Positions 4,509-28,269 of a stretch of 64,000 nucleotides of DNA are shown piece after piece. Numbering within the stretch: the first letter of the stretch is position 1; every line of letters begins with the position of its first letter. The stretch comes from an uncultured Sutterella sp. Its GTDB lineage: Bacteria > Pseudomonadota > Gammaproteobacteria > Burkholderiales > Burkholderiaceae_F. The DNA is taken from NCBI GenBank assembly GCA_900767875.1, contig CAAGAT010000074.1, forward strand, positions 34,270 through 98,269. Direction: 5' to 3'. Below the pieces are notes generated by a model. That model was given only the letters and a program-made list of their open reading frames with translations, was not told the DNA's origin and did not search any database. Made by a program: the position numbers and the translations under genes.

Positions 4509-4536
4509 GTTTTTGCGCTTTTCTTGATCTGGGCAA

Positions 4537-5924: not shown

Positions 5925-6035
5925 CGCCTCTCGGGCCATTGTTTGCCCAATTGTCGCCCATTGAGCCCGTGCCCGCCCCCGACGGGGTCCGCGCGGGCTA
6001 AATTTTGAGCAAGCTCCCCAACCGTTTGCCGCCCT

Positions 6036-6716: not shown

Positions 6717-6718
6717 AA

Positions 6719-11061: not shown

Positions 11062-11079
11062 TCGCCTTCACGGAAAGAC

Positions 11080-11104
11080 TCGGGGAAAAGCCTCTTTTCC
11101 CCGA
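11080..11104 (+). terminator. hairpin after aspS
   Basis: CGGGGAAAAG-CC-TCTTTTCCCCG perfect inverted repeat; no strong U-tract. Confidence 0.4.
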
Positions 11105-11271
11105 GGCCACACGGCTCGACAAAGCTTGCTTTGCCGGGCCGTTGTTTTTGGTGCAATCGGAAACAAAATCCGCGGCTCGTGCGCCGACGCTTGCCGCTAT
11201 ACTTGGCTCAAATCGGTGCGACAGACGCCGAAAATGCAGACTTTCCCCGATACGGGGCCCCGAACAAGACA

Positions 11272-11652
11272 ATGTCCCTTACCTCCACCAAACAACGCCG
11301 GGCCATCGGCGAGCGCCTCGCGCAGGAGCGCAACCGCTTAAGCTACACGCCGCTGCAGATCGCGCAGCTTCTCGGCGTGCCGCTCGAGACCTACGAGCGC
11401 TACGAGGCCGGCCTTGAGGATCCGGGCGTGTTCAACATGCAGCGCCTCTATACGATCGGCTTTGACGTGATGTTCGTCGTCACGGGCGACCGCTACCGTC
11501 CGGTGCAGGAGGAAAGCGAGCTGCTGCAGCGCTTTCGGGAACTGTCGCTGCGCGGCAAGACCTCCATCTTCATGACGTTGGATGCGCTCGAGCGCCTCGC
11601 GCCCAACCTCAAGGAAAACATCAAAAAGAAGTTCCGCGACACGCTCAGCTGA
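11272..11652 (+). CDS. XRE-family helix-turn-helix transcriptional regulator, 126 aa
   Basis: Start at internal MSLTSTKQRR; HTH segment YTPLQIAQLLGVPLETYERYEAG. Confidence 0.6.
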   Translation: MSLTSTKQRRAIGERLAQERNRLSYTPLQIAQLLGVPLETYERYEAGLEDPGVFNMQRLYTIGFDVMFVVTGDRYRPVQEESELLQRFRELSLRGKTSIFMTLDALERLAPNLKENIKKKFRDTLS

Positions 11653-11791
11653 CCGCCCCGCCACGCTTTGCAATGGAGCTCCCAACGCTCCTTGCACCCG
11701 AAAAACAACAGTTTCATCAAGGAAAGCGCGCACGAAGAGCGCCGCCGCAAATCAGATATGGCAAACTGAGAATCCGTTGAGCGCATTTGCC

Positions 11792-14501: not shown

Positions 14502-15128
14502 TCAGTAATCGCGCGCGGCGTACTTGTCGGCAAGCTTATTGAGGTAGGCGATCACTTCGGGACCGGTCCAGTCCACAAAACCGCGCACGAAGCCCACGAG
14601 GTTGCCCTGACCGTCGAGCACGAAAAAGCTCGGCACCACATCGAGCGGCACATCGTCGCCGATCACCTGCTTGGTGTCGATCAGGGTGCTGAAGTCTTCG
14701 CCAAGACCGTAGCGCTTCATGAACTTCTTGACGTCCTTGACGTTGTCGTCCACGGACACGGAAATGACGTGCACCTTGCTCTTGGGATCCTTGTTGAAGT
14801 GGCGCTGCAGCTCGTGCATGGCCGGCATCGTACGGATGCACGGCTCACACCAGGTCGCCCAGACGTCCAGGAGCACGAGCTTGCCCTTGAAGGAATTCAG
14901 GGCCACCGGCTTGCCGTTCAAATCGGGCAGCACGGCCTTGGAAAAACCGCGGGTGTGACGCATTTCCAAAAAGTCGCGCAGCTGACCGGGCTTGCCCGCC
15001 ATGGGTTCGCCGTTTTCGACGATCTTGTTTTGGAAGGCCGGAACGTATTCCTCGGCCTGGGGCTGGGCCGCCACGGCGGACACGGACAGGCTTGCCGCCA
15101 GAGCAAGCGAGAGCAACAGACGTTTCAC
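14502..15128 (-). CDS. periplasmic thioredoxin-like thiol:disulfide oxidoreductase (TlpA/ResA/DsbE family); last gene of the octaheme-cytochrome cluster
   Basis: WATWCEPC active site. Start assigned to GTG (V of VKRLLLSLALAASLSVSAVAA signal peptide) preceded by AGGAGA. Confidence 0.8.
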   Translation of the reverse strand: MKRLLLSLALAASLSVSAVAAQPQAEEYVPAFQNKIVENGEPMAGKPGQLRDFLEMRHTRGFSKAVLPDLNGKPVALNSFKGKLVLLDVWATWCEPCIRTMPAMHELQRHFNKDPKSKVHVISVSVDDNVKDVKKFMKRYGLGEDFSTLIDTKQVIGDDVPLDVVPSFFVLDGQGNLVGFVRGFVDWTGPEVIAYLNKLADKYAARDY

Positions 15129-15166
15129 TTTAGGTCTCCTGAAATGCAATGGTTGTTGGTATGCGG

Positions 15167-15634
15167 TTAGGGCTTTGCGGCCGGCTTTTGGCGCCGGCGC
15201 AGACTGCGCCAGAAAAGCAGGGCGCCGACGGCTGCGGCAATCCAGGGCGCGGCCCAGAGTAGAAAAGTGGTGGCGTTAAAATCGGGCTGATAACGCACGG
15301 CCTCCCCGTAGCGCTCGGCCATGTAGTCGAGAATTTCGCCGCGGCTCGCCCCTTCCCGGAGCTTTTGATAAATGAGGGCCTTGAGCTCGCCGGATAGGGC
15401 CGTTTCCGACTCGTAGAGCGTGTTGTTGGCCGAGCTCGGATCGCGCAGCAGCTTGGAAACGGCGATGGCCTCGTCGTAAAGCGCGCGGCCGCTCAAGCCT
15501 TCGCTCTTTTGAGCCGGCTGCGTTGCCGATGCAACGGGCTCGACCGCCTGTGCCGGCATCGGCGTTGCCGTCACGAGCATGAGGGCCGCGCCCAAGGCCA
15601 CCAGGACCCCTTGAATGCGTTGCAAAAGCGTCAT
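15167..15634 (-). CDS. CcmH/NrfF-like cytochrome c maturation protein lacking the CXXC motif
   Basis: C-terminal ALIYQKLREGASRGEILDYMAERYGEAVRYQP aligns to E. coli CcmH (KVYELMQEGKSKKEIVDYMVARYGNFVTYDP). Where CcmH has LRCPKCQNN this protein has LRDPSSANN. Start codon overlaps the upstream CcmF-like stop. Confidence 0.7.
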   Translation of the reverse strand: MTLLQRIQGVLVALGAALMLVTATPMPAQAVEPVASATQPAQKSEGLSGRALYDEAIAVSKLLRDPSSANNTLYESETALSGELKALIYQKLREGASRGEILDYMAERYGEAVRYQPDFNATTFLLWAAPWIAAAVGALLFWRSLRRRQKPAAKP

Positions 15635-17523
15635 TTCCTGAGCTCCTTTCGGCGGCGGGTCAAAAGCGTCACGAGGCCCGCGAACATCATGAGAGCGGCG
15701 GCGCCCCACAGCCAGCTTGCCAGCGGTTTGACGGCCAGTCGCACGAGCCACTCGGTCTCGGAGAGCTTGTTGCCCATCGACACGTACAGGTCGCGCAACA
15801 GGCCGTGATCGATGCCCGCGGCCGTCATCTGCATGCCGTTGGACACAAAGGTCTGGCGCATCGGGAACAAATCCGTGAGGTGGCTCTCGTCCGAGGCCTT
15901 CAAAACCTCAATGTGTGCCGCGTCGCCAAAGTAGGCGTGCGTGTTGACCTTGTAGGTGTCGCGGTAGACGAAAATCACATCCCCAACGGGCTTGCCCGCG
16001 CCCGGCCCCATGCGCACGAGCGCCTCGGTTTCGTACTGCGCAATGCCCGTGGCTCCGACGATGGCCAGGGCGATCGACACGTGCGCGAGCACCGCGCCGA
16101 CGGCAGGGCGAGCGCCCGCCGTCACAAAAGGAGCAATGCTTGCGGCCGCCAGCCAGCCCGCGCTCGCAAAGGCCGCAAAGGTCATGCCGAGCTCCTTGGG
16201 CCCGGTCACAAACGCCAGGCTCCCGCACAAAAGAGCCACGACGGCGCATGCAGCGATGGTCGCCTTAAGGTGCCGCGCGCCCAAAATCTGCGCGCCGCCG
16301 GCCGCGACGGCCGCAAACAGGCTCATGGGCGCAAAGAAGCTGTTGAAGTAGGGAGCCCCCACCGTGAGGGACCCCAGGCCTGCCATGTCGTAAAAGACCG
16401 GATAGAGCGTGCCCACGAGCACGGCCGCCGCTCCCACGCACAGGGCGCACACGGCCAGCGTCAGGCCCGTGTCGAGCGCATCGGGATCGCTCACTTCGCG
16501 CGTCTCGGCCTTTTGGACCGCATCAATGCGCAGGGCATAAAAGACGAGCCCGGGCACGAGCACCAGAATGCAGGCGATGAGCAGCACGACGCCGCGCTCG
16601 GGGTCGGAGGCAAAGGCGTGCACGGACTGCATCAGGCCGCTGCGCACGATGAAGGTACCGAGCAGACACAGCGCAAAGGAAACGATGCCGAGCATCAGAA
16701 CCGTGCGCAGCATGCGCGCGCGCTTTTCAAAAAGAATCAGGGCGTGCAGCAGGGCGCTCACCGTGAGCCACGGAATGAAGGAGGCGTTTTCGACCGGGTC
16801 CCAGAACCACCAGCCGCCCCAGCCAAGTTCCGTGTAGGCCCACCAGGAGCCCAGCGCATTGCCCGCCGTCAGAAAAATCCAGGTGATGATGCCCACGCGC
16901 TTGAGCGCGGCCACGGCCTCGGGTGAGAGGCGCCGCATCCACAGCACGGCCGTCACGAGAGCAAAGACCACGGCCAGCCCGGCGTAGGCGGCAAAGATGA
17001 CGGGCGGATGCAGGATCATGCCGATGTCCTGCAGGATGGGATTGAGGTCGCGCCCCTCCAAGGGAACCGCCGGCAGGTTGCGCAGGAAGGGGTTGGCGGC
17101 CGTCAGCACAAAGGTGGCGAACACGCCCGTGACGGCAAGCATCACGCACTGAATGCGCGCGCTGAAGGCTTCGCGGCCGCGGTGAAAGAGCGCCTCCAGA
17201 CAGGCCGCCACCGCAATGAAAACGAGCCAGAGCAGCATCGAGCCCTCGTGGCTGCCCCAAAGCGCGGCCGTCTTGTAGAGCGTCTCAAGCTTGGTGTTGG
17301 AGTGGTCGGCCACATACGTGATCGAAAAGTCATCGATCAAAAAGGCGCGCAGCAAAATCCCCGCGACGACAATCAGGCACAGCGCTGCGGCGGGCGTGCA
17401 CACACGCCACAGGCCCGCCAGAGTCTTGTTGTCCCTGACGAGGCCGGCAAAAACCGCCGCGGCCCCAAAGAGGGACGAAGCCGCCGCCAAACACAGCAAA
17501 AAGTGACCGAACTCGGCAATCAC
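15631..17523 (-). CDS. CcmF/NrfE-like cytochrome c-type biogenesis protein (heme lyase), 630 aa
   Basis: WWFWDPVENASFIPWL (WWD domain); polytopic membrane protein; CcmF family over the full length. Confidence 0.9.
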   Translation of the reverse strand: MIAEFGHFLLCLAAASSLFGAAAVFAGLVRDNKTLAGLWRVCTPAAALCLIVVAGILLRAFLIDDFSITYVADHSNTKLETLYKTAALWGSHEGSMLLWLVFIAVAACLEALFHRGREAFSARIQCVMLAVTGVFATFVLTAANPFLRNLPAVPLEGRDLNPILQDIGMILHPPVIFAAYAGLAVVFALVTAVLWMRRLSPEAVAALKRVGIITWIFLTAGNALGSWWAYTELGWGGWWFWDPVENASFIPWLTVSALLHALILFEKRARMLRTVLMLGIVSFALCLLGTFIVRSGLMQSVHAFASDPERGVVLLIACILVLVPGLVFYALRIDAVQKAETREVSDPDALDTGLTLAVCALCVGAAAVLVGTLYPVFYDMAGLGSLTVGAPYFNSFFAPMSLFAAVAAGGAQILGARHLKATIAACAVVALLCGSLAFVTGPKELGMTFAAFASAGWLAAASIAPFVTAGARPAVGAVLAHVSIALAIVGATGIAQYETEALVRMGPGAGKPVGDVIFVYRDTYKVNTHAYFGDAAHIEVLKASDESHLTDLFPMRQTFVSNGMQMTAAGIDHGLLRDLYVSMGNKLSETEWLVRLAVKPLASWLWGAAALMMFAGLVTLLTRRRKELRK

Positions 17524-17619
17524 GCTTTCTTTTCCTTATGCATCGCCTTTCCCTTGGGAAAAGCGGTTGATTCGTTCGTCGGACTTTACGCGCCCAACCT
17601 TCCGTCTGGCTGAAAACCC

Positions 17620-18417
17620 TCAGAAGCGCTTGCGCGCAAAAATCGTGCGGGCCAGGGCAAAAAGCGCCGCAGCCCAAGCAATCAGCACGGCCGTCAGGGC
17701 CGAGGCGGGCACGCCCGAGGCCACCGACCCAAAAAGCGACTGATTCAAGAGGCGAAAGGCACTGGCCGGATTGGCGAGCATGAGCGCGTTGAGCACGCCG
17801 CGCGGCAGGCCGCCCGTCATCGAGACGGCCGCCACCAATAGCCCGAGGTCATAGAGCAGCACCACCGCCAGCCACACGAGCACGAGAATGGCCAGCGCCT
17901 GCGCCTTGGTGCGCACCGACAGGCTCACGCAGTAGGCGGCAAACATAAAAACGAGCCCGAGCAGCCAGGCCGTGGCCGCGCTCACCGCCAGCGCCGCCAT
18001 CATCTCGCCCACGGCGTAGGGCACGGCGGCAAAAGCGGCCGCCACCGGCATCACGGCAAAACCGAGCATCAGCACGATGGCCACGGCCGCCCCCTGCCCG
18101 ATCGCCTTGCCGAGCAAAAAGGCCGTGCGGCTGAGCGGATAGGTGAGCATCAAAATGAGCATGCCGCCCTCGAGTTCGCCCACCAAGGCGTCGTAGGCGA
18201 GCAAAATGGCCAGCAGCGGCAGCAAAAAGACCGTGAGCGAAACCAGCGAATTCATCACCACCGACAGGGGCGGATAGGCAAAGCTGCCCCCGATGGCGGC
18301 CGTGCCGAAAAAGACGGCCAGCGACAGGATGGCAAAAAGCAGCGCGCCCGAGACGAGCCAGCGGCTTTGCAGACAGTCGAGCAGCTCCTTGCGGGCCACA
18401 AGCCAAACGTTTCTCAT
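17620..18417 (-). CDS. NosY-like ABC-2 family permease
   Basis: 6-TM ABC-2 permease; start at MRNVWLVARKELLD overlaps the upstream ATPase stop (ATGA). Confidence 0.7.
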   Translation of the reverse strand: MRNVWLVARKELLDCLQSRWLVSGALLFAILSLAVFFGTAAIGGSFAYPPLSVVMNSLVSLTVFLLPLLAILLAYDALVGELEGGMLILMLTYPLSRTAFLLGKAIGQGAAVAIVLMLGFAVMPVAAAFAAVPYAVGEMMAALAVSAATAWLLGLVFMFAAYCVSLSVRTKAQALAILVLVWLAVVLLYDLGLLVAAVSMTGGLPRGVLNALMLANPASAFRLLNQSLFGSVASGVPASALTAVLIAWAAALFALARTIFARKRF

Positions 18418-19316
18418 TGCGCCTCCTCGCGTTGCGCCTGCCCGCTCTTGAGGCAATAGGCGGCAAAAAGGTCGGTCAGACCCGCCCGGCGGATGTCAAA
18501 GTCAAAGTCGTGCATCTCTTGCGTCAGAATCCGAATCACCTCGGGCACCTCGCGCTCGGGCACGCGCAGCGTCTCACCCTCGAGGTACTTGGCGGCGGGA
18601 CCGGCGAGCAAGGCCTGACGGTCAAAGCCGCGGATGACGGCCTTGAGGTTGGAGCGGCGCCGCAGCTCTTCGAGCGTACCGCTTGCGCGCAGTTTGCCGC
18701 CCGCCATCATGAGCACAAAATCGGCGTAGGGCTCGATGAGGCTGAGCTCGTGCGTGCACACGATCACGGTGCAACCCTGCGCGCGCAGCTTGGCCAGCTC
18801 GGCGTACATCCAGGAGGAAGCCTGCGGATCGAGCCCCACGGTGGGCTCGTCAAGAATCATGATTTTGGGCTGCGCCAGCAGCGCCTGCGCCAGTCCGAGG
18901 CGTTGACGCTGGCCATTGGAGCACTGGTTCATGCGGTTGTTGCGCACGGCCGATAGCCCGAGAGCCTCGAGCAACTCGTCGACGCGCGTGGGAGCCACCC
19001 CCTTGAGGGCGGCAAAGTATTTGAGGTGCGCGAGCATCGTCATCTGCTCGTAAAAGCTGATGTTTTCGGGCAGATAGCCGATGCTCAGGGGATCGGATCC
19101 CGGCACCTTGCCCAACACCGTCACGCTGCCCTCTGCGGGGTAAAGTAGCCCGAGAATGTTTTTGATGAGCGTGGACTTGCCCGCCCCGTTGTGGCCGATC
19201 AGCGCCGTGAGCGTGCCCTCTTTGAGCGAGCAGCTCACCCCGTCGAGCACCTTGCGCGAGCCGCGCCAAAAGCCCAGGTTCTTCACGCCGATCGTTTCGG
19301 CACGATTTTCCGTCAT
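18414..19316 (-). CDS. NosF-like ABC transporter ATP-binding protein
   Basis: Walker A GHNGAGKST, ABC signature, Walker B ILDEP; start overlaps the NosD-like stop. Confidence 0.8.
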   Translation of the reverse strand: MTENRAETIGVKNLGFWRGSRKVLDGVSCSLKEGTLTALIGHNGAGKSTLIKNILGLLYPAEGSVTVLGKVPGSDPLSIGYLPENISFYEQMTMLAHLKYFAALKGVAPTRVDELLEALGLSAVRNNRMNQCSNGQRQRLGLAQALLAQPKIMILDEPTVGLDPQASSWMYAELAKLRAQGCTVIVCTHELSLIEPYADFVLMMAGGKLRASGTLEELRRRSNLKAVIRGFDRQALLAGPAAKYLEGETLRVPEREVPEVIRILTQEMHDFDFDIRRAGLTDLFAAYCLKSGQAQREEAQ

Positions 19317-20608
19317 TTGTGTGCTCCCAAAACCGCAGGAGCGCTCATCAGCGGATGGCTGTCGGTGACTCCCTTGCCCCGGTCGATTTCAAGCCGCGCG
19401 GCAAACCAGCGCAGCAGCGCCGTCACCGGGCTTTCCATCAGAAAGCGCGCTTCCGGATAAATCCAGAAAATGCGGTCCAGACTGTCGTTGGGCTGGTAGG
19501 GCGTATCGGCGATGCCGTCGCCGTCGGCGTCCCAGCTCATGAAGGTGCTCCAGTAGTTGCCGCGCCCGTTTTCGCTCCACTCCAAGGGCGTCTTGCCCAC
19601 ATAGCGCACCTGAATCGTGTTTCGGTCAAAGGCGTTGCCCGTGACCACGGTTTTTTCGCCCCCGAGCGCCACGCCGATGCCGATGTCGGCGCCCGTAAAG
19701 GCGTTGCCCTCGACGCGGCTCGCGCCCGGGCCGTAAATGAAGAGTCCCTTGCCTTCGGTATCGAGAACCGCCTTTCCCTTGGGGTTGTGCACGCCCTCGA
19801 CCAAATTGGACTTGACGGTGCAGGCCTCGCAGACGTTGAGCAGGATGCCGAATTCGACGCTGTCACGGGCGGTGTTGTCGCGGCACAAAATCCGGCGGCT
19901 GCTCATCAGGGCAAAGCCGCCCACGGAATTGACCGTCGTATTGTCGTATCCGACGTCGTCGCGCGTGTACATCCAGTGAATGCCGTACTGGGTGTTGTCA
20001 AAAAAGTTGCCGCGCGACTCGGTGCCGTCCGTGTTTTCAAAGTAAAAGCCGTCGCGCACGTTGCGCACGGTGTTGTCGATGAGTTGCGAGCGCTTGACGT
20101 AGTTCAAAAAGACGCCATCGCCGCGATCGAGGATGTGCCGCCGTGCGTTGCCTTCGATCCGGCAGTCGCGCACGACGAGGTTTTCGAGACGGTCGGCCCG
20201 GATGCCAAAGCCCGGCCCGGATAAAGTGAGGGTCGTCAGGCGCACCCCCTCACAGCCGTCCATCACGCGCACGCCGCTGTCGCGCTTATACAGGTTGCCG
20301 CCGTAGTTGCGCACCGTCAGGTTTTCAATCGTGGTGCGCGAGCGTCGGATCGTGATGCCGCTGCCCCGGCCGCCCGCGTCAATGACCGCGCCGTCTTCGC
20401 CGCGCACGGTCAGGGGCTCTTTGAGAAGCAGATTGAGTTTGTAGACGCCCTTGGCAAAGACGATCGTATCGCCCTCCTCGACTTCGTCGAGAATAGCCTT
20501 GACGTCATCGGAGGGCGTCACGCGCCAAACCGCGGCCTGCGCACCGAGCGCAAAGACCGACAGAGTCAGCGCCAAGGCCGTTGGCCCAAATAAACGAAAG
20601 GGCTTCAC
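19313..20608 (-). CDS. NosD-like periplasmic copper-binding parallel beta-helix protein
   Basis: 431 aa with a signal peptide; repeated right-handed beta-helix units (NTVRNVRDGFYFEN, GNAFTGADIGIGV, GNAFDRNTIQVRY). Confidence 0.8.
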   Translation of the reverse strand: MKPFRLFGPTALALTLSVFALGAQAAVWRVTPSDDVKAILDEVEEGDTIVFAKGVYKLNLLLKEPLTVRGEDGAVIDAGGRGSGITIRRSRTTIENLTVRNYGGNLYKRDSGVRVMDGCEGVRLTTLTLSGPGFGIRADRLENLVVRDCRIEGNARRHILDRGDGVFLNYVKRSQLIDNTVRNVRDGFYFENTDGTESRGNFFDNTQYGIHWMYTRDDVGYDNTTVNSVGGFALMSSRRILCRDNTARDSVEFGILLNVCEACTVKSNLVEGVHNPKGKAVLDTEGKGLFIYGPGASRVEGNAFTGADIGIGVALGGEKTVVTGNAFDRNTIQVRYVGKTPLEWSENGRGNYWSTFMSWDADGDGIADTPYQPNDSLDRIFWIYPEARFLMESPVTALLRWFAARLEIDRGKGVTDSHPLMSAPAVLGAHK

Positions 20609-20621
20609 GATCGGGCGTCCT

Positions 20622-21113
20622 TTAGCGGTCGAGCAACTCGAGCGTCACGTCCTTGTAGGCGTAAAGCTTGCCGCCGTGCTTGGCCATGAAGGCCTGCGCC
20701 TTGTCTTGCGAGGAAAAGGCGGCCGGTTCGTTGCCCATGACGCCTTCGACGTCGTGCCCGTAGACAAACCAAGCCTTGGTCGCGTCGATGAGCGCCTGAT
20801 CCGAGGGGCTGTCCCAGTCGGTCGCGCCCATGTCGTGAATGAAAAAGCCGAGCAGACGACGCGCGTTTTCCGGCTGCAGGGCAAAGGTAAAGGCGTCGCG
20901 CCCCGAGCAGAACTTCACGGTCTCGTCTTCGGCGCCCTTGATGAAGACTTCGGCCTTGGGGCCGGGATAGTGGGCGATCACCATGCCGCACATGTGGCAG
21001 CGGTCGTGCGCCTCAAAGGCGACGGGCTTGACCGTTTCGGCGGCCTTGTCCGAGCAACCCGCCAAAAGAGCGCACAAGGCGGCGGCCATCAAAAATCGGG
21101 GAGCGGTCGGCAT
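20622..21113 (-). CDS. NosL-like copper chaperone lipoprotein
   Basis: Lipobox LAGCSDK, conserved HDRCHMCGMVI metal-binding segment, 163 aa. Confidence 0.8.
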   Translation of the reverse strand: MPTAPRFLMAAALCALLAGCSDKAAETVKPVAFEAHDRCHMCGMVIAHYPGPKAEVFIKGAEDETVKFCSGRDAFTFALQPENARRLLGFFIHDMGATDWDSPSDQALIDATKAWFVYGHDVEGVMGNEPAAFSSQDKAQAFMAKHGGKLYAYKDVTLELLDR

Positions 21114-21219
21114 CCGTTGTTTCCTTTGGGCGAGCTTGGCCCGGAAAAGTCACGAGAGACAACCGTCCAAGACGCCCCGCGGCGCCTCAACGGTTGGCTT
21201 TCAAAGCTTTAATTATGAC

Positions 21220-21303
21220 GATGCCGCCGGTGAAGGCGGCATCGGTCGGGCGGAAACTTGCGGTTTCCGTTTCAGACCCGAGCCCGGCTTGCGCCGGTCT
21301 CGG
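21220..21303 (-). other. three consecutive perfect or near-perfect stem-loops in the 211-bp gap between the NrfD-like gene and the NosL-like gene
   Basis: GATGCCGCC-GGTGAA-GGCGGCATC; CGGAAAC-TTGC-GGTTTCCG; CCGAGCCCGGC-TTGC-GCCGGTCTCGG. None has a strong U-tract. Confidence 0.45.
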
Positions 21304-21324
21304 AGGTCTGAGAGCATCCTCGGA

Positions 21325-22245
21325 TCAGAGCCCGTAGGTCTGACCGGCGTAGAGGATAAACAAGCGCAGGCACATCATGCCGACGACACTGCAAAGCCCC
21401 GTCAGGTAGAACACGCCCGTGCCCTTGGCCTTGCTCAGCAGGACCGGAACGATGAAGCCGATGGCGACGACGCCGACCCAGAAGAGCGTGGCCCACGTGC
21501 CCGTGCAGAAGGCCTGAGCGGCATTCTGAGCGGCGGCGTTGCCGGTGATCAGCGCAACGGCGATCATGAAGATGCACAGGGCTTCGGCGGCCATGATCGG
21601 CCACTCGGCGCCGTGCAGAATCTTCTGGTCGGGGCTGTGCTGGTCCTCACCGAACAAACCGGCGGCAACCATCTTGGCGGCGGCGGTACCGGCCGAAAGA
21701 CCGGAGGCCACGAAGAGGGCCGGCAGCACGGCCTGGTTGATCAGCGGGAAGCGGATCAGTGCACTGATCAGGAAGCCCGTGTAGGCGCAGATGGTCAGAG
21801 CAAAGACAAGCGTGATCCACTGAAGGCCGCAGCGGTGGTTGTCGAACCAGCCGATGATGCCGTCAAGGAACCCCAGCTTGAAGCTGTCGCGCAGTGCAAC
21901 CAGCGTGAGGATGCACACCAGCGGGATGTAGCACAGCAGCGCCATGACGCCCAGGCTCATCACGGAGGTGGGGTTGTAGAACACCAGAATGCGCCAGAAC
22001 CACAGCGGGTTGGTCAGGTCGAGGACCAGGCAAACCATGCCGAGCAGAATGGTCACGGACCCGATGAGGGACGCGGCCTTGAGGATCGGCGTGTTCTGGG
22101 CGGTCTGCTTCTTATACAGGTTGAGCACGATGGCAACGGCAACCGCACCGCCCGAGATACCCGCCAGGAACAGGTAGACGGCAATCGGCCACGGCCAACT
22201 GATGCCCTGCGTCAGACCAAGTGTAAAGTTCATGGTGATTTCCAT
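21325..22245 (-). CDS. NrfD/PsrC-family membrane quinol dehydrogenase subunit
   Basis: 306 aa, about 8 TM helices, NrfD/polysulfide reductase family; start 3 nt after the NrfC-like stop. Confidence 0.8.
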   Translation of the reverse strand: MEITMNFTLGLTQGISWPWPIAVYLFLAGISGGAVAVAIVLNLYKKQTAQNTPILKAASLIGSVTILLGMVCLVLDLTNPLWFWRILVFYNPTSVMSLGVMALLCYIPLVCILTLVALRDSFKLGFLDGIIGWFDNHRCGLQWITLVFALTICAYTGFLISALIRFPLINQAVLPALFVASGLSAGTAAAKMVAAGLFGEDQHSPDQKILHGAEWPIMAAEALCIFMIAVALITGNAAAQNAAQAFCTGTWATLFWVGVVAIGFIVPVLLSKAKGTGVFYLTGLCSVVGMMCLRLFILYAGQTYGL

Positions 22246-22247
22246 CT

Positions 22248-22946
22248 TTACACTCCTTTCTTCACAATCGGAATGTAGCGAAGCTGCGGTTCAGTACCGA
22301 GTTCCGGGCGGATACGCACGGAATCCTTCACCGCGAGCAGCTTGCTCACATACGACTTCGGGTCGTTGATGTCGCCGAAAATCAGCGCATCGTACTTGCA
22401 GCTTTCAACGCATGCCGGCGTCTCGTTCTTTTCGAGGCGCGTGTGCAGGCAGAAGTCGCAATTGTCAGCGGCCTTGGTCTCTTCGTTGATGAAGCGCACG
22501 TTGTAGGGACATGCCACGATGCAGTACTTGCAGCCGACACACTTGGACGTATCCATCGTCACGATGCCCGTCTTGGGATCGTGATGAGCGGCGCCGGTCG
22601 GGCACACCTTTGTGCAGGGGGAATTCTTGCACTGCTGGCAAGAAACGCGGATGTAACGGCGATCGGGCTCGTAACCGCGGTCGGTTTTGAGCTCGCTGCC
22701 CTGCAGCTCCAGCAACAGACGCGAGCGGCCCTTGGGCAGCTTGTTGGTCTCGTTACAGGCATCTCTGCAGTCTCTGCAACCGACGCACTTGTTCTGGTCA
22801 AAGACCATCACATAGTGCGGGCGGCTGCCGCCGTCGGACGTGGCCGCAGCCGCCGCCCCGGCAAGAGGCGACAGAAGCAGCGAGCCGGCTCCGGCACCTG
22901 CGAGGAATTTTCTCCTGTCAATCTTATCGCTCACGATATTCTCCAC
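22248..22946 (-). CDS. NrfC/PsrB-like 4Fe-4S ferredoxin subunit with Tat signal
   Basis: RRKFLAGAGAGSLL twin-arginine signal; four Cys clusters (CVGCRDCRDAC, CQQCKNSPCTKVCP, CVGCKYCIVACP, CDFCLHT..C). Confidence 0.85.
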   Translation of the reverse strand: MENIVSDKIDRRKFLAGAGAGSLLLSPLAGAAAAATSDGGSRPHYVMVFDQNKCVGCRDCRDACNETNKLPKGRSRLLLELQGSELKTDRGYEPDRRYIRVSCQQCKNSPCTKVCPTGAAHHDPKTGIVTMDTSKCVGCKYCIVACPYNVRFINEETKAADNCDFCLHTRLEKNETPACVESCKYDALIFGDINDPKSYVSKLLAVKDSVRIRPELGTEPQLRYIPIVKKGV

Positions 22947-22984
22947 AGACAGAACCGATTGGCATGGCCAAACGTTTCTGCCGA

Positions 22985-23629
22985 TTAGTCTTGCAACCGA
23001 GCCCTTGACTCGGCGTTGGCGATGGCATTTCTGAGGGCTCTTTGCTGCTCGGGGGCGACCCCGGCATCGAGAAGCATCTTCCAGTGACGCACGGCTTCGT
23101 CGTAGCGCTGGTGCAGGAACGCATCCTCTCCGAGGAGCATCCGCGTCTGCACGTCAAGCGGATTGGCCGACAAAACGCGTTCGATCACACGGCGGGTTTC
23201 GTCCGTCAGGTTCCGGGCGTCGCGATAGTACATCGCACGCGCCAGCCTTCCGAGCGTCTCGGCCCGCGCACCGTCCAGCATCAAAAGCGCGTTGAAGACT
23301 TCAACGGCTTCGTCGTACTGACCGGCCTCGTAGAGGGCCTCGGCAAGCTGCGAATGCGCCTGGGCGTTGCGGGGCATGTTTTTGACCATGCGCCGCGCCT
23401 CGGCGATCTTCGCCGCGAGCATGTAGTTGGTTTCCGCTCCCGTCCGGGCGCTCTGCCAGTCCGCGTACCGGCCAAAGCCGGCGTAGACGGCCACGCTCGA
23501 GACGAGCACGACAAACGCAAATCCCGCCGTCAGCGATTTGGTGCGATTCGAGCCCCGGCGGGCGTACACCGCCAGTGCCGCCGCAAAGGCCGCAAGAGCC
23601 AGTGCGATCAAACCGTCCAAACCGTTCAC
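22985..23629 (-). CDS. membrane-anchored TPR protein, CcmI/NrfG-like cytochrome c maturation factor
   Basis: N-terminal TM segment followed by TPR repeats (AEALYEAGQYDEAVEVFNALL ...). Confidence 0.65.
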   Translation of the reverse strand: MNGLDGLIALALAAFAAALAVYARRGSNRTKSLTAGFAFVVLVSSVAVYAGFGRYADWQSARTGAETNYMLAAKIAEARRMVKNMPRNAQAHSQLAEALYEAGQYDEAVEVFNALLMLDGARAETLGRLARAMYYRDARNLTDETRRVIERVLSANPLDVQTRMLLGEDAFLHQRYDEAVRHWKMLLDAGVAPEQQRALRNAIANAESRARLQD

Positions 23630-23686
23630 GTCAATGCCTTCACTTTGTTAAAGAGCTTGTCTTGGAAAGCCTTCACCGCCCGACCA

Positions 23687-24472
23687 TTACTGGTGCGGGT
23701 TGGGCATCCCGTTGATCACGGTCTTGCCCATGCCTTGATGGGCTCCGACTTTTTCAACCTTGACCAGTTCCAGTTCAAAGACCAGAGGAGATTCCGGGGG
23801 GATCTGACCGGCGCCAAACTCACCGTAGGCCAGGTTCGCGGGAACCGTGAAACGGAACTGCGCGCCTTCCTTCATGAGCTTGAGGCCTTCTTCCAGACCC
23901 GGGATGATGCTCATCACCACGAAACGAGCCGGTTGTTTGGCTTCGTACGTGCTTTCAAACACCGTGCCGTCCATGAGCTTGCCCGTATAGTTGACCGTCA
24001 CCACGTCCTCGGTACGGGGCGTTGCGCCGGAACCCTTTCTGAGCACTTCATACTGCAGACCGCTCTTGGTCGTCGTCACGCCCTTTTTCTTGGCGTTGTC
24101 GGCGAGGAACTTGACGGCCTTGGCCTTGTTTTCCTTGGCCAGCTTCTCGGTGGCGGCCGCTTCGAGCTTGTTGAGCTTTTCAGCGCGGCTGTTGAGGAAC
24201 TTGAGCAGGTCATCTTCGGAAATCTTGCTCTTTCCGCGGATGGCATCGATAAAGCCCTGTTCCACGAGCGCCATGTCGGCCGACAAGCCGAGCTTGCTCT
24301 GCTTGTAGATCTGATCAGAGATGTAGTTACCGACGGATGCCCCCATGCTGTAGGCTTCTTTCGCCTGCTGGGTGTCAAGGTCGCCTGCGAAGGCAACGGT
24401 ACCGGCACACATCAGAGCAGAGGCCGTCAGCACGATTTTCTTGAGGGATTGCATGGTGGTTTCTTTCTTCAA
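23687..24472 (-). CDS. periplasmic FKBP-type peptidyl-prolyl cis-trans isomerase (FkpA-like)
   Basis: Signal peptide; N-terminal dimerization helix and C-terminal FKBP domain (VVTVNYTGKLMDGTVFEST..FVV..IPGLEEGLKLMKEGA..LAYGE). Confidence 0.85.
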   Translation of the reverse strand: MKKETTMQSLKKIVLTASALMCAGTVAFAGDLDTQQAKEAYSMGASVGNYISDQIYKQSKLGLSADMALVEQGFIDAIRGKSKISEDDLLKFLNSRAEKLNKLEAAATEKLAKENKAKAVKFLADNAKKKGVTTTKSGLQYEVLRKGSGATPRTEDVVTVNYTGKLMDGTVFESTYEAKQPARFVVMSIIPGLEEGLKLMKEGAQFRFTVPANLAYGEFGAGQIPPESPLVFELELVKVEKVGAHQGMGKTVINGMPNPHQ

Positions 24473-24541
24473 AAATACAGTTGACTCACGGAAGGTGAGA
24501 TCACATTCCGCATAAAACTTGCTTTTCGCCTTCGCGCGGCC

Positions 24542-24967
24542 TTACGGACGCTCGAACTGCCGCCCCGACAATTTCCAGCCGTAGATTCCGTCGGGCATCT
24601 GCCACACGTTCGTGTAGCCGAGCTTCATGGTCTCATAGGCCGCGATTTCGCTGGAGCTGCAAAGGCGGTTGGCGCAGTAAAACACAATCAGCGCGTTTTT
24701 ATCCTTGGGCAGGAGCTTTTGCCAGTTGCCGACGTTGAAAAACTCGGCGCCCGGAATGTAGCCCTCGGCCCAGAGTTCGAGCGTGTTGACATCGTAGATG
24801 TGCACGCCGGGCTCGGTAAAAAGCTGCTCGGCTTCCGGAATGGAAACCTGACGGACTTTGTAGACGTAGTCTTCCGCCGCCGTCAAAGGAGCATCCCCGC
24901 CGGCAAAGCCGATCACAGGGAGCGCCAAAAGCGCACTGGCCGCAAGATTTTGCAGAAGTTTTTTCAT
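24542..24967 (-). CDS. periplasmic single-domain rhodanese-like sulfurtransferase
   Basis: Signal peptide; rhodanese fold with candidate active-site Cys in VFYCANRLCSS. Confidence 0.7.
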   Translation of the reverse strand: MKKLLQNLAASALLALPVIGFAGGDAPLTAAEDYVYKVRQVSIPEAEQLFTEPGVHIYDVNTLELWAEGYIPGAEFFNVGNWQKLLPKDKNALIVFYCANRLCSSSEIAAYETMKLGYTNVWQMPDGIYGWKLSGRQFERP

Positions 24968-25077
24968 TTTGTGTTTCGATGAGCCGTCTCTTATCCGGTC
25001 CTCGGCCCGAAAGCCGGCGCCCTTGGAGCACCGCCTTCGGCCGAGACTAGGAGATCGAGGTTTGCGAGTCGCTTGGA

Positions 25078-27129
25078 TTACTTCTTGGCTTCAGTCTTGA
25101 TGAGCGGGAAGTTGCCGTTATCAAGAATCTTCTGAGCCTGCGTCAGATAGGCATTGGCCGTATCAACGCGCTGCTTGAGGTAATCGGGAGCGTGAACACC
25201 CCAGGAACCGTCTTCTTCAACCTGCTTGATGATGTCGGCAGCCTTGTCGACGAGCAGCATGATTTCGGTCTTGGCTTCAACGGTGAGCTTCGTGACTTCA
25301 AGAAGCTTGTTGATGCGCTGCAGGGTGGCCTTGGCAACCTTGTGACCGTCCTTAACCGGGTTCTGCCACTTCATGACTTCACCGTAGATGGTCTTCTGGT
25401 CACCGTACTGCAGGCCCTTTTCGAGCTCGGACAGGAACAGGCTGTGGCAGCCCTTGTTGTCCATCACACCCTTTTCGGCGTTGGCCGTACGGGCGCAGGA
25501 CCACATCAGGTCAACGTAGCCGTGGCCTTCTTCGTCACGGGCAACGTGCCAGCCCTTGGAGTTGGAAGCACGAGACTGACCTTCGGCCGGGTTCATCATC
25601 TTCTTTTCCGGATCAACCATGATCTTGAAGAGGTGAGAACGACGAACGGCGTCGAAGCCCGCCATGTCGGGACGCTGGATGGCCGTGAAGTTTTCGCAGC
25701 TCATCGTGAACGGCATATGGCAGTCCACGCAGTCCATCTTCTGGTGGGTGTTGGTGTTGGCAACCACATCAGCCTGGGTCTTATGGCAATCCTGGCAGGT
25801 CTTGCGGATCGCGGGCTTGGTGTAATAGGACTTCCAATCGTTGCTGGTGACTTCGTGCGGATCGTGGCAGGTCACGCAGCGCATGCCCTTTTCATAGTGC
25901 TTGGACATCATCAGCTGAGAGCCTTCCGTACCGCAGGACGGGCAGGACGACTTCGTCTTGATGTTGAAACCCTTTTCAAGCTTGCCGTGAGCGGACGGAA
26001 GCTTGTAGTCGCTTTCCACGAAGTTGGAGCGCTGGTGGCAGCGTTCGCAGTTGGACTGGAAGCCGTTGGATTCGGCGCCCACGAGGTGGCCGCCGGCGCC
26101 GTGGCATTCTTCACAAGAGATGCCGCGCGAAACGGTGTGCTTCTGCAGTTCTTCGGCGTTGCCCAGAGCCTTGAAGAATTCGTCCTTGCTCTTAAAGTCG
26201 AACTTGAAGGCGTGGCAGACTTCGCAGTAGGAAGTCGCGGACTGGAACAGCAGCTTCTGTTCAAAGGTCGAACCGTAGGAGGTCATACCCCACTGGTGCG
26301 AAGCGGACGGACCGAACTGGCTGAGCTGGGTCGGGAAGTCCGGAATCACCTTCTGGATTTCCTTGGCCTTTTCGGGGGTCAGCCACTGAGCCCAACCGCG
26401 GGAGAACTGATTGCCGCCGGCAACCACGGTACCCGTACCCTTGCTCAGCAGGCCATCACGCACGTGGTAGGCACCGCGCACGAGCCACTTGTCGACGAAG
26501 CCGTACTTCGTGCGGGGCGTACCGATCGTGGCGTAAATGTCTTCGGGCATGATGCCGTCGGGCAGGATCGACGCCTGAGAGCCGTAAAGCTTCTTCTTCA
26601 GATCGTTGTCCACTTCGGGATGGTCGCCGGGGAAGCGAACCGTCTGAGCGTGACGGGAGCGCTTCCACTTCTGGTACTGGATCGCGTGGCATTCGCCGCA
26701 GCGTTCCGGACCGACGAAGCGGTTGGGGAAGTCAAGCACGGACTTGGCGGCCAGACGGTACTGCGAAGCGCTCGGGCGACCGCCCGCAAGCTTGGAGTAG
26801 GTCTGCGCGTTGCCTTCCGTCAGGAATTCCGAACCACGGGTCGAAATCTTATAGACGCCCTTGATGCGGCCTTCTTCCGCATACTTGAAAATGGGGTGAT
26901 TCTGGAAGAGCCAGTCCCACATTTCCTTTTCCTGGACGATGTAGTCCTGCAGCGTCTTGACGCCCATTTCCTTTTCGGTCGTCGACGGGTTATCCCAAAC
27001 CTTCTGCGTGACGGCGTTCACGGTCTTGTTGCCGACACCCGGGGTGGCAGCAGCCTGAGCACCGGAGGCAATCAGCGCAGCGGAGCAAAACAGCGTGGCA
27101 GTCGCCGTTTTGATCATTCTTGTTGTCAT
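25078..27129 (-). CDS. mccA: MccA/SirA-family octaheme c-type cytochrome (dissimilatory sulfite reductase type), 683 aa
   Basis: Start at [26 protein letters not shown] (signal peptide, GGAG RBS). Seven CxxCH motifs (CGECH, CEVCH, CEECH, CERCH, CVTCH, CQDCH, CVDCH). Eighth site is [18 protein letters not shown], i.e. CX12NKGCH = CX15CH at 25444-25497. Confidence 0.8.
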
Positions 27130-27314
27130 CTCAAATCTCCTAATTATTTTTAGCCTGCGCCGTCGGGAAGGGCGTCGCAGACGCCGTGGGGTCTTCAAGA
27201 GACTCCGCGAGCAATGAAAGCGTAACTTAAGGTTGCCTTCAGGGAATTAGGAGTTTTATCGCAGTCCCTCACGAACTTTGATTAAAGTCGAATGCGGCGT
27301 TTTAAGGGGGTGAT

Positions 27315-27328
27315 TTGATACAGATCAA
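27315..27328. promoter_or_regulatory. FNR/ANR-type binding site upstream of the octaheme cytochrome gene
   Basis: TTGATACAGATCAA is a perfect match to TTGAT-N4-ATCAA, about 190 bp upstream of the mccA start codon. Confidence 0.55.
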
Positions 27329-27497
27329 AATAAAAAAGGCCGAAATCGCTCAAAATACCTCTTAATGGGTGTTTTTTTGATCGAATTCCGACCTTTTCGG
27401 GGCATTGCACCCCGTCCCTTGCGGGCTATCCCGATGTAATTCCCTCGGCGTACCAAACCCGATTGGGCGGCGCGGCGACTACGCCCTCTGAACTATA

Positions 27498-27881
27498 TCA
27501 AAGGTCTTTGCGTTTGATCTCTTCGACGACGACCGCATCCTCGATGACGGTCGTGCGTTTGATGCCGGTGCGGGCCTGTCCGGCCTTCAGATCGTCGTCG
27601 GTGCGCTCTTGGTTTTGCGGCTCGGCGGCCGCCTCACCCGCACGGTGGCGCAGCATCTCTTCGGCCTGCTTTTGCATGCGCGCAAACGGATCGCCGTAAC
27701 GCCAGCGGCTGTACAGGCCGTAAAGGGCCACGCAGCCCACGAAGATCAGCGCGGCCAAAAACAAGCCCCCGATGATCGGCAGCAGCAAAATCGCCAGCCC
27801 CACCAAACCGGCCAGCACGACGGCCGAGGCCAGGAAAGCGACGACGGGATTGACGGGACGGCCGTTGATGTAAAGAGCCAT
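27498..27881 (-). CDS. small hypothetical membrane protein (2 predicted TM helices)
   Basis: 127-aa ORF with a hydrophobic N-terminal half and a charged C-terminal half; no family recognised. Confidence 0.4.
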   Translation of the reverse strand: MALYINGRPVNPVVAFLASAVVLAGLVGLAILLLPIIGGLFLAALIFVGCVALYGLYSRWRYGDPFARMQKQAEEMLRHRAGEAAAEPQNQERTDDDLKAGQARTGIKRTTVIEDAVVVEEIKRKDL

Positions 27882-28269
27882 GCTCTCAGTTCCTTATAAA
27901 GTCGAGGAAGTTGCAGTCAGTGTACCTGTCGATTGCGTTTGTTTGATCGGGGACTTGGCAACCGTTTGTTTCGTTCTTTCTCCCATATGGAGTCTGTGGG
28001 TGCGTTTTTCCAGCCCCGGAGCTGTAAAAGTCCAAAAAATCAGCCCGCACGAGGCTTTTTAAGCTTTCCCAAATCACAAATCCTTTATCATTCGCTTCTC
28101 AACGAACTTTTGCGATCCCGCCCCCCTTTTTCAGGGTTTGCCATAGCCGGCTGACGCCGCCTCGGCTGAAGGGTCCGCCGACGTTTTTTTGCGGATCCGC
28201 GGCTTGTGCGCCCCTCTTGATGTTTGAGAGAGCCGCACCGCGGCGATTGCTTACAGACAAGAAATTGAT

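Follow-up and report, generated by a model that had tools for sequence, protein, structure and literature searches.

Organization of the locus

Positions 14502 to 27129 of the window (the whole 64-kb stretch of DNA that was analysed) contain 13 co-directional genes on the minus strand. Inspection of the ORFs shows that all of them are intact and lie where a first, sequence-only reading had placed them, with a GC3 of the coding type (0.71–0.86). Profile searches assign each gene to the family that had been named for it, NosF and NosY by generic models together with their position. The interval starts exactly at the ATG of a cytochrome gene (27129), which is preceded by AGGAG, and ends with the stop codon of a TlpA-like gene (14502). 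Its neighbours are housekeeping genes (aspS and an AsmA-like gene at one end, folE2 and argS at the other), and the genomic background, previously described as betaproteobacterial-looking, is that of the Sutterellaceae. In the order of transcription, the features are:

27315..27328, no strand assigned: FNR/CRP-family binding-site consensus TTGATACAGATCAA, predicted anaerobic or activator-dependent promoter element, 186–199 nt upstream of the mccA ATG
25078..27129, minus: mccA/sirA, predicted periplasmic octahaem cytochrome c sulfite reductase, 683 aa, Sec leader (4rkm_A match)
24542..24967, minus: predicted periplasmic single-domain rhodanese in the sirB/sirI position (PF00581, E = 4e-10; signal peptide)
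23687..24454, minus: predicted periplasmic FKBP-type peptidyl-prolyl isomerase, FkpA-like (FKBP_N E = 3e-21, FKBP_C E = 3e-26; position conserved)
22985..23629, minus: sirG-like, predicted membrane-anchored TPR apocytochrome chaperone, NrfG/CcmI-like (NF007692 1.6e-16, below cutoff)
22248..22946, minus: sirC/mccC, predicted Tat-exported protein with four [4Fe-4S] clusters, NrfC/PsrB type (TIGR03149 1.2e-70, below the NCBIfam cutoff; Fer4_11)
21325..22245, minus: sirD/mccD, predicted NrfD-family integral-membrane quinol dehydrogenase (PF03916 2.4e-62; TIGR03148 2e-68, below cutoff; polytopic)
20622..21113, minus: nosL/sirJ, predicted lipoprotein Cu(I) chaperone (PF05573 8.3e-47; LAGC lipobox and CHMCGM motif)
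19313..20608, minus: nosD/sirK, predicted periplasmic beta-helix protein (TIGR04247 356.9 bits, cutoff 300; PF05048)
18414..19316, minus: nosF/sirL, predicted ABC ATPase (PF00005 3e-30; 4-nt overlaps with nosD and nosY; position conserved)
17620..18417, minus: nosY/sirM, predicted ABC-2 permease (PF12679 3.5e-20; polytopic; position conserved)
15631..17523, minus: sirE, CcmF/NrfE-type cytochrome c synthetase, predicted to be dedicated to the CX15CH haem (TIGR03145 4.8e-174, below cutoff; PF01578 and PF16327)
15167..15634, minus: sirF, CcmH/NrfF-like, without both active-site cysteines (PF03918 2.4e-27)
14502..15149, minus: sirH, predicted periplasmic TlpA/ResA-family thioredoxin with a WCEPC motif (NF002854 (ResA) 2.4e-23; TlpA 3e-19; Redoxin, AhpC-TSA)

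The gene overlaps of 1–4 nt described earlier occur at three of the 12 junctions (nosD/nosF, nosF/nosY and ccmF/ccmH), each as a 4-nt ATGA, but the other junctions are gaps of 2–211 nt. The signal peptides, the Tat leader and the lipobox of the encoded proteins fit a periplasmic system.

The octahaem cytochrome and its probable substrate

The cytochrome matches the structure of Wolinella succinogenes MccA (4rkm_A) over residues 14–671, with an E-value of 2.4e-215. Its sole matches in the PDB (E <= 0.01) are 4RKM and 4RKN, and no OTR, ONR, HAO or NrfA structure is matched at this threshold. Judged by these full-length matches, the protein is a cytochrome of the MccA/SirA type, as had been proposed, and not an OTR, ONR or HAO.

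MccA contains seven CXXCH motifs and one CX15CH motif. The latter is spelled CX12NKGCH. Shewanella SirA has this very spelling, and there the motif is essential (PMC6976685). An alignment of 114 sequences, 112 of which are MccA homologues, shows that all eight haem motifs are invariant or nearly so across the homologues, and that the cysteines aligned to positions 411 and 507 of the W. succinogenes chain are kept in at least 112 of the 114 sequences. The copper ligands of the W. succinogenes enzyme are reportedly Cys399 and Cys495 (Hermann et al. 2015), and the 96-residue spacing of the aligned pair agrees with these positions. The protein is 72–96% identical across several genera and 56–65% identical to its Shewanella homologues.

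MccA also reduces nitrite (PMC9250108), so that the in vivo substrate is not proven. It is conceivable, but improbable, that the enzyme acts in vivo on nitrite or some other N-oxide rather than on sulfite, and that a nitrate-respiring gut bacterium uses it as its alternative nitrite reductase: gut genome surveys credit Sutterella with nitrate/nitrite reduction (bioRxiv 10.64898/2026.06.24.733704; PMC4257093), and one Shewanella homologue is labelled nitrite reductase by its source. However, the features that distinguish MccA/SirA from NrfA, ONR and OTR, namely the two cysteines at the copper-ligand positions and the CX15CH motif, are conserved throughout. In Shewanella, sulfite reduction depends on the orthologous system, and a mutant in the regulator of that system is impaired in this activity alone (PMC6976685). 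Moreover, a periplasmic rhodanese, a sulfur-handling domain, is the neighbour of mccA in each of the three types of locus examined. Its gene comes after mccA in essentially all the loci of Sutterellaceae, Shewanella and Ferrimonas, and likewise in Edwardsiella; Campylobacter pinnipediorum has it fused with the cytochrome gene that comes next.

Comparison with the sir and mcc loci

Sutterella, Duodenibacillus, Parasutterella and Turicimonas all have the same, conserved locus. Some 30 loci of Sutterellaceae and some 30 of Shewanella and Ferrimonas share one gene order, MccA-Rhd-FKBP-TPR-NrfC-NrfD-NosL-NosD-NosF-NosY, and the CcmF, CcmH and TlpA genes are always adjacent in the loci compared. Shewanella was already known to have this type of sulfite-reducing system; the present one belongs to a gut bacterium of the Sutterellaceae.

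The sir locus of S. oneidensis MR-1 (SO_0476–SO_0488: sirEFH, sirA-(B/I)-G-C-D-J-K-L-M) consists of the same 13 gene families, with the same order of the 10-gene core (SirA, rhodanese, FKBP, SirG, SirC, SirD, NosL, NosD, NosF, NosY), an identical CX12NKGCH motif and a CcmF/CcmH/TlpA-type trio. The sole difference in gene content and order is the placement of this lyase trio, which is upstream and divergent in Shewanella and Ferrimonas but downstream and co-directional here, in a single 13-gene string. The ToxR-type regulator SirR of Shewanella is not adjacent here, where an FNR/CRP-type box precedes mccA. The hosts also differ: Shewanella is an aquatic gammaproteobacterium, the present organism a host-associated betaproteobacterium.

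The mcc locus of W. succinogenes (4RKM/4RKN) shares the full-length homology of the catalytic subunit, the eight haem sites and the two cysteines, and MccC-/MccD-type electron-input subunits have been described for both (PMC8076601). In W. succinogenes, however, it is a system-II lyase, CcsA1, and no CcmF/CcmH/TlpA set that attaches the CX15CH haem (PMC6976685). The earlier statement that the locus mirrors both mcc and sir is therefore right for the content and core order of Shewanella sir, but does not extend to the W. succinogenes lyase. The mcc locus reportedly encodes a NosL-like protein (MccL) and a two-component regulator (MccRS), and no NosDFY.

Proposed attachment of the haems

SirE carries the WGGWWFWDPVEN (WWD) motif, and its gene is in a position orthologous to that of Shewanella sirE. 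The TPR protein has two N-terminal hydrophobic segments and its gene occupies the position of SO_0482, sirG (named after PMC6976685); its best NCBIfam match is NrfG (NF007692), and it also matches TPR_CcmH_CycH, both below cutoff. SirH has a CEPC thioredoxin motif and the gene position of SO_0476, sirH (PMC6976685). In SirF, LRDPSS replaces LRCxxC and both active-site cysteines are lost: LRDPSSAN aligns opposite LRCPKCQN of the CcmH structures 2HL7 and 2KW0. The Shewanella homologues keep one cysteine (LRCPxS/A), whereas those of the window's clade have LRDP.

NrfC, NrfD, NrfE, NrfF and NrfG are the best NCBIfam matches for five genes, all scoring below the equivalog cutoffs, as is expected for paralogous subfamilies, though this is not proof. 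The NrfEFG/NrfCD proteins of E. coli cytochrome c nitrite reductase follow the same logic, in which an accessory System I lyase serves a single atypical haem motif and is joined by an FeS/NrfD module. The client motif is CXXCK there and CX15CH here, neither nrfA nor nrfB is present here, and the NrfF-like protein is devoid of the CXXC motif.

In S. oneidensis, sulfite reduction requires sirA, sirG and sirEF; the deletion of sirEF abolishes SirA, and the loss of sirH lowers SirA levels and delays sulfite reduction by 48 h (PMC6976685). The same study names sirAGCD as genes for sulfite reduction and reports that SirA maturation also needs the general Ccm system, including CcmI. By analogy with these genetic results, seven haems would be attached to the CXXCH motifs by a general Ccm system, necessarily encoded elsewhere, and the eighth to CX12NKGCH by the dedicated CcmF-type SirE, with SirF, SirG and SirH as its partners. 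The earlier proposal that a CcmF/H/I-like trio attaches the atypical haem thus stands as to the families present, but has to accommodate a CcmH-like protein without redox cysteines. To call the locus complete was too strong: the 13-gene sir set is there, but the general Ccm system that SirA needs in S. oneidensis (PMC6976685) is absent from the window.

The putative copper module

NosL is a member of PF05573 (8e-47) and NosD scores 357 bits with TIGR04247, above the 300-bit cutoff. The NosF and NosY positions are occupied by an ABC ATPase and an ABC-2 permease which match generic models only. The four genes are in the canonical L-D-F-Y order of N2O reductase maturation. However, Pfam scans of all the GC3-supported ORFs detect no nosZ, nosR or ccmABCDE in the 64-kb window, which bears out an earlier observation. 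The clients of NosLDFY are CuA and CuZ; here, the client would be the mononuclear two-cysteine Cu(I) site of the cytochrome.

The scores of NosD, above the trusted cutoff of its family, and of NosL, a bona fide PF05573 protein, could also mean that these genes mature an N2O reductase whose nosZ is elsewhere, and are in the operon by chance. This is very improbable: they are inserted between sirD and sirE, nosD, nosF and nosY overlap by 4 nt, and the position of the Nos genes is kept in about 60 loci from three families. The window is devoid of nosZ and nosR, and the MccA copper site does require loading (PMC12949373).

By analogy with N2O reductase assembly, the NosL lipoprotein would hand Cu(I) to the NosDFY-like ABC machine, which would transfer it to MccA. 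Nos-dependent loading of MccA, as proposed earlier, is likely but unproven. Next to MccA, Duodenibacillus massiliensis, a Parasutterella MAG, Edwardsiella and C. pinnipediorum have no Nos module or only part of one, and both cysteines are kept in these loci, so the module is not universally required in cis.

Proposed electron input and catalysis

The NrfC-like protein has an RRKF twin-arginine leader and 16 cysteines in four cluster motifs. Family membership suggests that reduced (methyl)menaquinone is oxidised by the NrfD-type SirD and that SirC conducts the electrons through its four [4Fe-4S] clusters into the haems, eight in number, of MccA/SirA. Sulfite would be converted to sulfide in one six-electron step at the active-site haem, opposite a Cu(I) on the two conserved cysteines, as shown for W. 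succinogenes MccA. The FKBP isomerase may help with periplasmic folding.

Within the Pseudomonadota, methylmenaquinone has been reported only from Shewanellaceae, Ferrimonadaceae and Sutterellaceae (PMC11707229), the three families in which this type of locus was found among the homologues compared. The quinone has a low potential and is considered to make sulfite respiration possible (PMC6682613).

Possible regulation and physiological role

The 64-kb window has no perfect TTGAT-N4-ATCAA other than the box TTGATACAGATCAA. With 0–1 mismatch and at a similar distance, such a box is present in 21 of the 27 loci tested from the Sutterella/Duodenibacillus clade. Most members of the nearest clade have it at -193 to -206, and the S. 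wadsworthensis clade has it at -278 to -303. The half-sites are kept while the spacer varies. No such box was found in the loci of Parasutterella, Turicimonas, Shewanella and Ferrimonas. Its conservation upstream of mccA suggests anaerobic induction.

The interval 14502–27129 is very probably an intact 13-gene operon, on the chromosome of a gut bacterium of the Sutterellaceae, for a quinol-dependent, copper-containing octahaem cytochrome which reduces sulfite to sulfide, and for the maturation of this enzyme. From this one window, sulfite respiration without DsrAB, as predicted earlier, is a tentative reading. The significance is mainly for gut sulfur ecology. The Sutterella family is not usually counted among the intestinal producers of hydrogen sulfide.

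A less likely reading is that the locus is real and the host does not respire sulfite, the genes being cryptic or used mainly for sulfite detoxification, with the enzyme as an electron sink that is not electrogenic. An mccA-like gene is present in Sulfurospirillum arcachonense and S. barnesii, which are reported to be unable to use sulfite (PMC4794192). Most periplasmic reductases of this kind have been described as electron sinks, the membrane potential arising from the donor complex (PMC6682613), and no report of sulfite use or reduction by Sutterellaceae was found in the literature searched. Against this reading, the 13 intact genes are under evident purifying selection across genera, with conserved order and the MccA identities given above; the conserved FNR-type box would imply regulated anaerobic expression; and the host families make a low-potential methylmenaquinone suited to sulfite (PMC11707229). 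Besides, with a proton-motive formate dehydrogenase or hydrogenase as its source of electrons, such a sink would still amount to respiration. The sulfite to be detoxified could come from food, as a preservative, or from the breakdown of sulfonates.

Organization of the operon

Thirteen consecutive genes occupy the minus strand between positions 14502 and 27129, as the sequence-only reading had claimed, and the upper coordinate coincides with the start codon, ATG, of the cytochrome gene. The 13 ORFs have GC3 values of 0.71–0.86, typical of real genes in this window, whose GC content is 62–65%. Profile searches assign each of them to the family that had been named. In order of transcription, the genes of the operon (14502-27129, minus strand) are:

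mccA/sirA: octahaem cytochrome of 683 aa
rhodanese gene
FKBP gene: FKBP_N and FKBP_C domains
sirG: TPR protein, best NCBIfam match NrfG
sirC: NrfC-like ferredoxin with a twin-arginine leader and four cysteine clusters
sirD: NrfD-family membrane protein
sirJ: NosL
sirK (19313-20608): NosD, above the NCBIfam trusted cutoff
sirL: ABC ATPase at the NosF position
sirM: ABC-2 permease at the NosY position
sirE: CcmF/NrfE synthetase
sirF (15167-15634, minus strand): CcmH/NrfF-like protein
sirH: TlpA/ResA thioredoxin

Overlaps of 1–4 nt had been described between these genes. This is the case at nosD/nosF, nosF/nosY and ccmF/ccmH, which overlap by 4 nt (ATGA), but the other junctions are gaps of 2–211 nt. 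A scan for promoters and terminators between 14000 and 28300 is uninformative on the operon boundaries (1 promoter-like element versus 2.4 expected from shuffled sequences, and 21 terminator-like elements versus 18.6).

The operon has housekeeping genes on both flanks. One flank comprises aspS and an AsmA-like gene, and the other comprises a small membrane ORF (orf127) together with folE2 and argS. The argS-folE2-orf127-mccA junction is kept throughout the nearest clade, which indicates that the locus is stably maintained in the chromosome of these bacteria. From mccA to sirC, in its 5' half (window 22001-28000), the operon has a GC content of 0.56–0.60, below the values of about 0.63–0.65 in its surroundings and of about 0.61–0.67 elsewhere in the window. 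The difference could reflect an old lateral acquisition or constraints that the proteins place on composition. An origin of the operon from a mobile element or a plasmid is unsupported, considering the housekeeping flanks and the conserved junction.

The product of orf127 (27498-27881, minus strand) is a 127-aa protein without a Pfam match; it has two hydrophobic N-terminal segments, and its C-terminus is charged. In the nearest clade, the gene is kept (47–73% identity) between folE2 and mccA, in the same orientation as mccA and upstream of the FNR-type box described below.

The octahaem cytochrome

When the cytochrome is compared with all PDB chains (phmmer), the only matches are 4RKM and 4RKN, the structures of MccA from Wolinella succinogenes (E = 2.4e-215, query residues 14–671). 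The cytochrome had been proposed to be MccA unless it clustered with other octahaem families, and this assignment stands: an OTR, ONR, HAO or NrfA identity is ruled out, since no such chain is found at E ≤ 0.01.

The protein contains seven CXXCH motifs, at residues 144, 302, 339, 361, 418, 445 and 467, and a CX15CH motif at residue 545. The latter can be written CX12NKGCH, the atypical motif that is essential in SirA from Shewanella oneidensis (PMC6976685). The window protein was aligned with 112 full-length homologues and the 4RKM sequence (114 sequences). The eight haem motifs show no or almost no variation across the 112 homologues, and Cys399 (PSCGTEG) and Cys478 (TMSCENF) of the window protein, which lie opposite 4RKM chain positions 411 and 507, are conserved in 112–113 of the 114 sequences. 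With an offset of 12 residues, we take positions 411 and 507 to be Cys399 and Cys495 of W. succinogenes MccA, presumably the Cu(I) ligands of Hermann et al. 2015; their spacing in the chain, 96 residues, agrees with these residue numbers.

The copper atom sets MccA/SirA apart from OTR, and the enzyme catalyzes the six-electron reduction of sulfite to sulfide (PMC12949373). MccA also reduces nitrite (PMC9250108), and the possession of mccA is no guarantee of sulfite use (PMC4794192). SirA is the sulfite reductase of S. oneidensis (PMC6976685), where the genes involved in sulfite reduction are given as sirAGCD only (Brockman paper, PMC6976685). By orthology, SirD would oxidize quinol and transfer the electrons to SirC and then to MccA, and sulfide would be formed in the periplasm.

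A second, shorter MccA paralogue is encoded at two loci, in a Sutterella MAG (L068) and in Turicimonas muris YL45 (L069), at about 10001-12800, and NrfC- and NrfD-like genes of its own come after it. It matches only the C-terminal half of MccA (residues 337–675, 42% identity) and may be a different multihaem reductase that uses the same electron-input module.

Distribution of the locus and comparison with known systems

A search for MccA in one genome per GTDB species gave 76 loci, against which the 13 window proteins were compared by tblastn. The closest loci belong to Sutterella and Duodenibacillus MAGs, in agreement with the betaproteobacterial-looking background noted before. The identities, 93–96% for MccA and 81–84% at the nucleotide level over the locus, indicate that the window comes from a distinct species of the Sutterella/Duodenibacillus clade. 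MccA is 72–78% identical to the homologues from S. wadsworthensis, S. parvirubra, D. massiliensis, Parasutterella excrementihominis, P. muris and T. muris; the more distant identities are 56–65% (Shewanella), 54–56% (Ferrimonas) and 50–51% (two Acidobacteriota MAGs).

The order MccA-rhodanese-FKBP-TPR-NrfC-NrfD-NosL-NosD-NosF-NosY is identical in Sutterellaceae, Shewanella and Ferrimonas, with exceptions among five loci (L016, L032-L035). In P. muris, T. muris and a related MAG (L032, L033 and L034), the genes of the TPR protein, CcmF and CcmH (sirG, sirE and sirF) are absent in cis and TlpA directly follows NosY. The D. massiliensis locus (L016) keeps nosD as the sole gene of the Nos module, and in a Parasutterella MAG (L035) all Nos genes are missing and the lyase trio is divergent. 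The two cysteines and the CX15CH motif of MccA are all kept in these five loci.

The locus had been said to mirror both the W. succinogenes mcc and the Shewanella sir loci. This is true of Shewanella: the gene content and core order of the S. oneidensis sir locus (sirA...sirG, sirC, sirD, sirJKLM, sirEFH; gene names from PMC6976685) are those of the window locus. It does not extend to W. succinogenes, in which the CX15CH haem is attached by the system-II lyase CcsA1 (PMC6976685); no CcsA/ResC-type gene occurs at the window locus, where the lyase is of the CcmF type instead. The window locus differs from that of Shewanella in the orientation of the CcmF-CcmH-TlpA trio, which adjoins the core in both cases, downstream and co-directional in Sutterellaceae, upstream and divergent in gammaproteobacteria. 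Thus, the system is already known, and the window holds its Shewanella-type form in a new family, the Sutterellaceae.

Within Pseudomonadota, methylmenaquinone has been reported only from some Shewanellaceae, Ferrimonadaceae and Sutterellaceae (PMC11707229). Based on one genome per GTDB species, the same three families are the Pseudomonadota families that have a NosLDFY-containing sir-type locus. The midpoint potential of methylmenaquinone is lower than that of menaquinone, which is thought to allow polysulfide, sulfite and other acceptors of low potential to be respired (PMC6682613). That the quinone and the locus occur in the same families lends circumstantial support to the idea that the system is used.

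The haem lyase and the CcmH-like protein

SirE matches TIGR03145 (4.8e-174), PF01578 and PF16327, and its WWD motif, WGGWWFWDPVEN, is present. In S. oneidensis, the deletion of sirEF abolishes SirA protein and activity, the loss of sirG or sirH reduces both, and the maturation of SirA also needs the general Ccm system, with CcmI (PMC6976685). The absence of general ccmABCDE genes, noted before, is borne out within the 64-kb window by Pfam scans of every GC3-supported ORF. For the lyase to function as it does in S. oneidensis (PMC6976685), CcmABCDE must be encoded elsewhere in the genome.

SirF has the fold family of CcmH/NrfF (PF03918, 2.4e-27) and lacks the LRCxxC motif: LRDPSS lies opposite the LRCPKC of the CcmH structures from Pseudomonas aeruginosa and Escherichia coli (2HL7 and 2KW0), with D and S opposite the active-site cysteines. 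Judging from its sequence, SirF is a member of the CcmH family without a redox site. Among the homologues in L001-L067, neither cysteine is present in the clade of the window, in Parasutterella and in one Ferrimonas (LRDPSS), and the first cysteine only is found in Shewanella (LRCPxS/A) and in the S. wadsworthensis clade (LRCPVS). The thioredoxin SirH retains its CXXC motif. Since SirF has no LRCxxC, the dedicated lyase of the CX15CH haem seems to work without the canonical CcmH thiol pair; the combination of a CX15CH lyase and a cysteine-less CcmH would imply that thiols are handled unlike in canonical System I.

The proposed copper module

NosL matches PF05573 (8e-47) and NosD scores 357 bits with TIGR04247, above the 300-bit cutoff. 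NosF and NosY match the generic ABC_tran and ABC2_membrane_2 models alone, and are assigned tentatively, from their position and from the 4-nt nosD/nosF and nosF/nosY overlaps. No NosZ or NosR domain (Pfam) is found in any GC3-supported ORF of the 64-kb window, which agrees with the earlier statement that nosZ and nosR are missing. By analogy, NosL and NosDFY would load Cu(I) onto MccA; no report of a sirJKLM phenotype was found in the literature that could be read.

Both MccA cysteines are kept at loci without a complete Nos module, in D. massiliensis, the Parasutterella MAG, Edwardsiella and Campylobacter pinnipediorum. The Nos module therefore appears to be a lineage-specific helper rather than a universal requirement in cis. 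The locus of Edwardsiella piscicida (L078, 8490-12472) encodes an FeS protein, a cytochrome b, MccA and a rhodanese, and that of C. pinnipediorum (L077, 12048-14075) encodes MccA followed by a rhodanese-multihaem-cytochrome b fusion.

In each of the three locus types examined, mccA has a rhodanese domain beside it. In C. pinnipediorum this domain is part of the fusion; Sutterellaceae, Shewanella and Edwardsiella encode it in a gene of its own. The three types differ in their electron-input and Nos modules.

The embedded nosD could give a false call of N2O reduction in marker-based pipelines (cf. PMC12710354). The MccA homologues themselves carry labels such as "cytochrome c3 family" and even "nitrite reductase".

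Regulation

A TTGAT-N4-ATCAA palindrome of the FNR/CRP type, TTGATACAGATCAA, is located at 27315-27328, 186–199 nt upstream of the ATG of mccA, and is the only perfect site in the window. Of the 27 loci tested in the Sutterella/Duodenibacillus clade (among L001-L027 and L058), 21 have the box at a comparable distance with at most one mismatch; the half-sites are kept and the spacer varies. It is absent upstream of mccA in the Parasutterella, Turicimonas, Shewanella and Ferrimonas loci tested. The Shewanella sir locus has a ToxR-family activator, SirR, whereas the window operon has no such neighbour on either flank, and the regulator closest to it, a LuxR-type response regulator, is at a distance of 18 kb. 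The conserved position of the box, with its varying spacer, suggests that mccA could be controlled by a regulator of the FNR/CRP family, in place of the ToxR-like SirR of Shewanella.

Physiological significance

Sutterellaceae are common, and sometimes abundant, in the intestines of humans and animals. When H2S production in the gut is budgeted or genomes are surveyed, the enzymes considered are as a rule DsrAB (Desulfovibrio, Bilophila) and cysteine desulfhydrases, and in some cases AsrABC. A census of gut respiratory reductases from 2014 considered dsrAB as the sole sulfite reductase (PMC4257093), and a 2026 survey of gut gases credits Sutterella only with nitrate/nitrite reduction (bioRxiv 10.64898/2026.06.24.733704). 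A survey of the NrfD family places MccD in Gammaproteobacteria (35 of 51 species) and Epsilonproteobacteria (15 of 51) and does not mention Betaproteobacteria (PMC8076601). In an incomplete search of the literature, no paper was found that ties Sutterellaceae to an octahaem sulfite reductase, and an earlier mention is possible.

We consider it an evenly balanced proposal that Sutterellaceae are overlooked sulfite-respiring H2S producers, which use the haem-copper MccA/SirA and not DsrAB or AsrABC, and that this system and methylmenaquinone spread together, as a functional pair, into Shewanellaceae, Ferrimonadaceae and Sutterellaceae. Provided that the locus is active, sulfide could be made from sulfite with formate or H2 by Sutterella, Parasutterella, Turicimonas and Duodenibacillus. 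The sulfite might come from the breakdown of taurine, isethionate or sulfoquinovose by neighbours, or from food preservatives. The significance is modest and mainly ecological, for gut sulfur; the cysteine-less SirF and the patchy Nos module are also natural variants for studying the insertion of the eighth haem and of copper.

Other genes in the window

Two further features were observed:

4524-7507, plus strand: trio of LarA-like (lactate racemase), AIR-carboxylase-like (LarB-type) and Ni-insertion (LarC-type) genes
42929-43960, minus strand: ORF with primase zinc-ribbon, DUF7146 and Toprim domains

The Lar-type trio, which is unrelated to the operon, suggests the synthesis of a nickel-pincer cofactor. 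Housekeeping genes surround the primase/Toprim ORF, which may have been left behind by a mobile element or phage.
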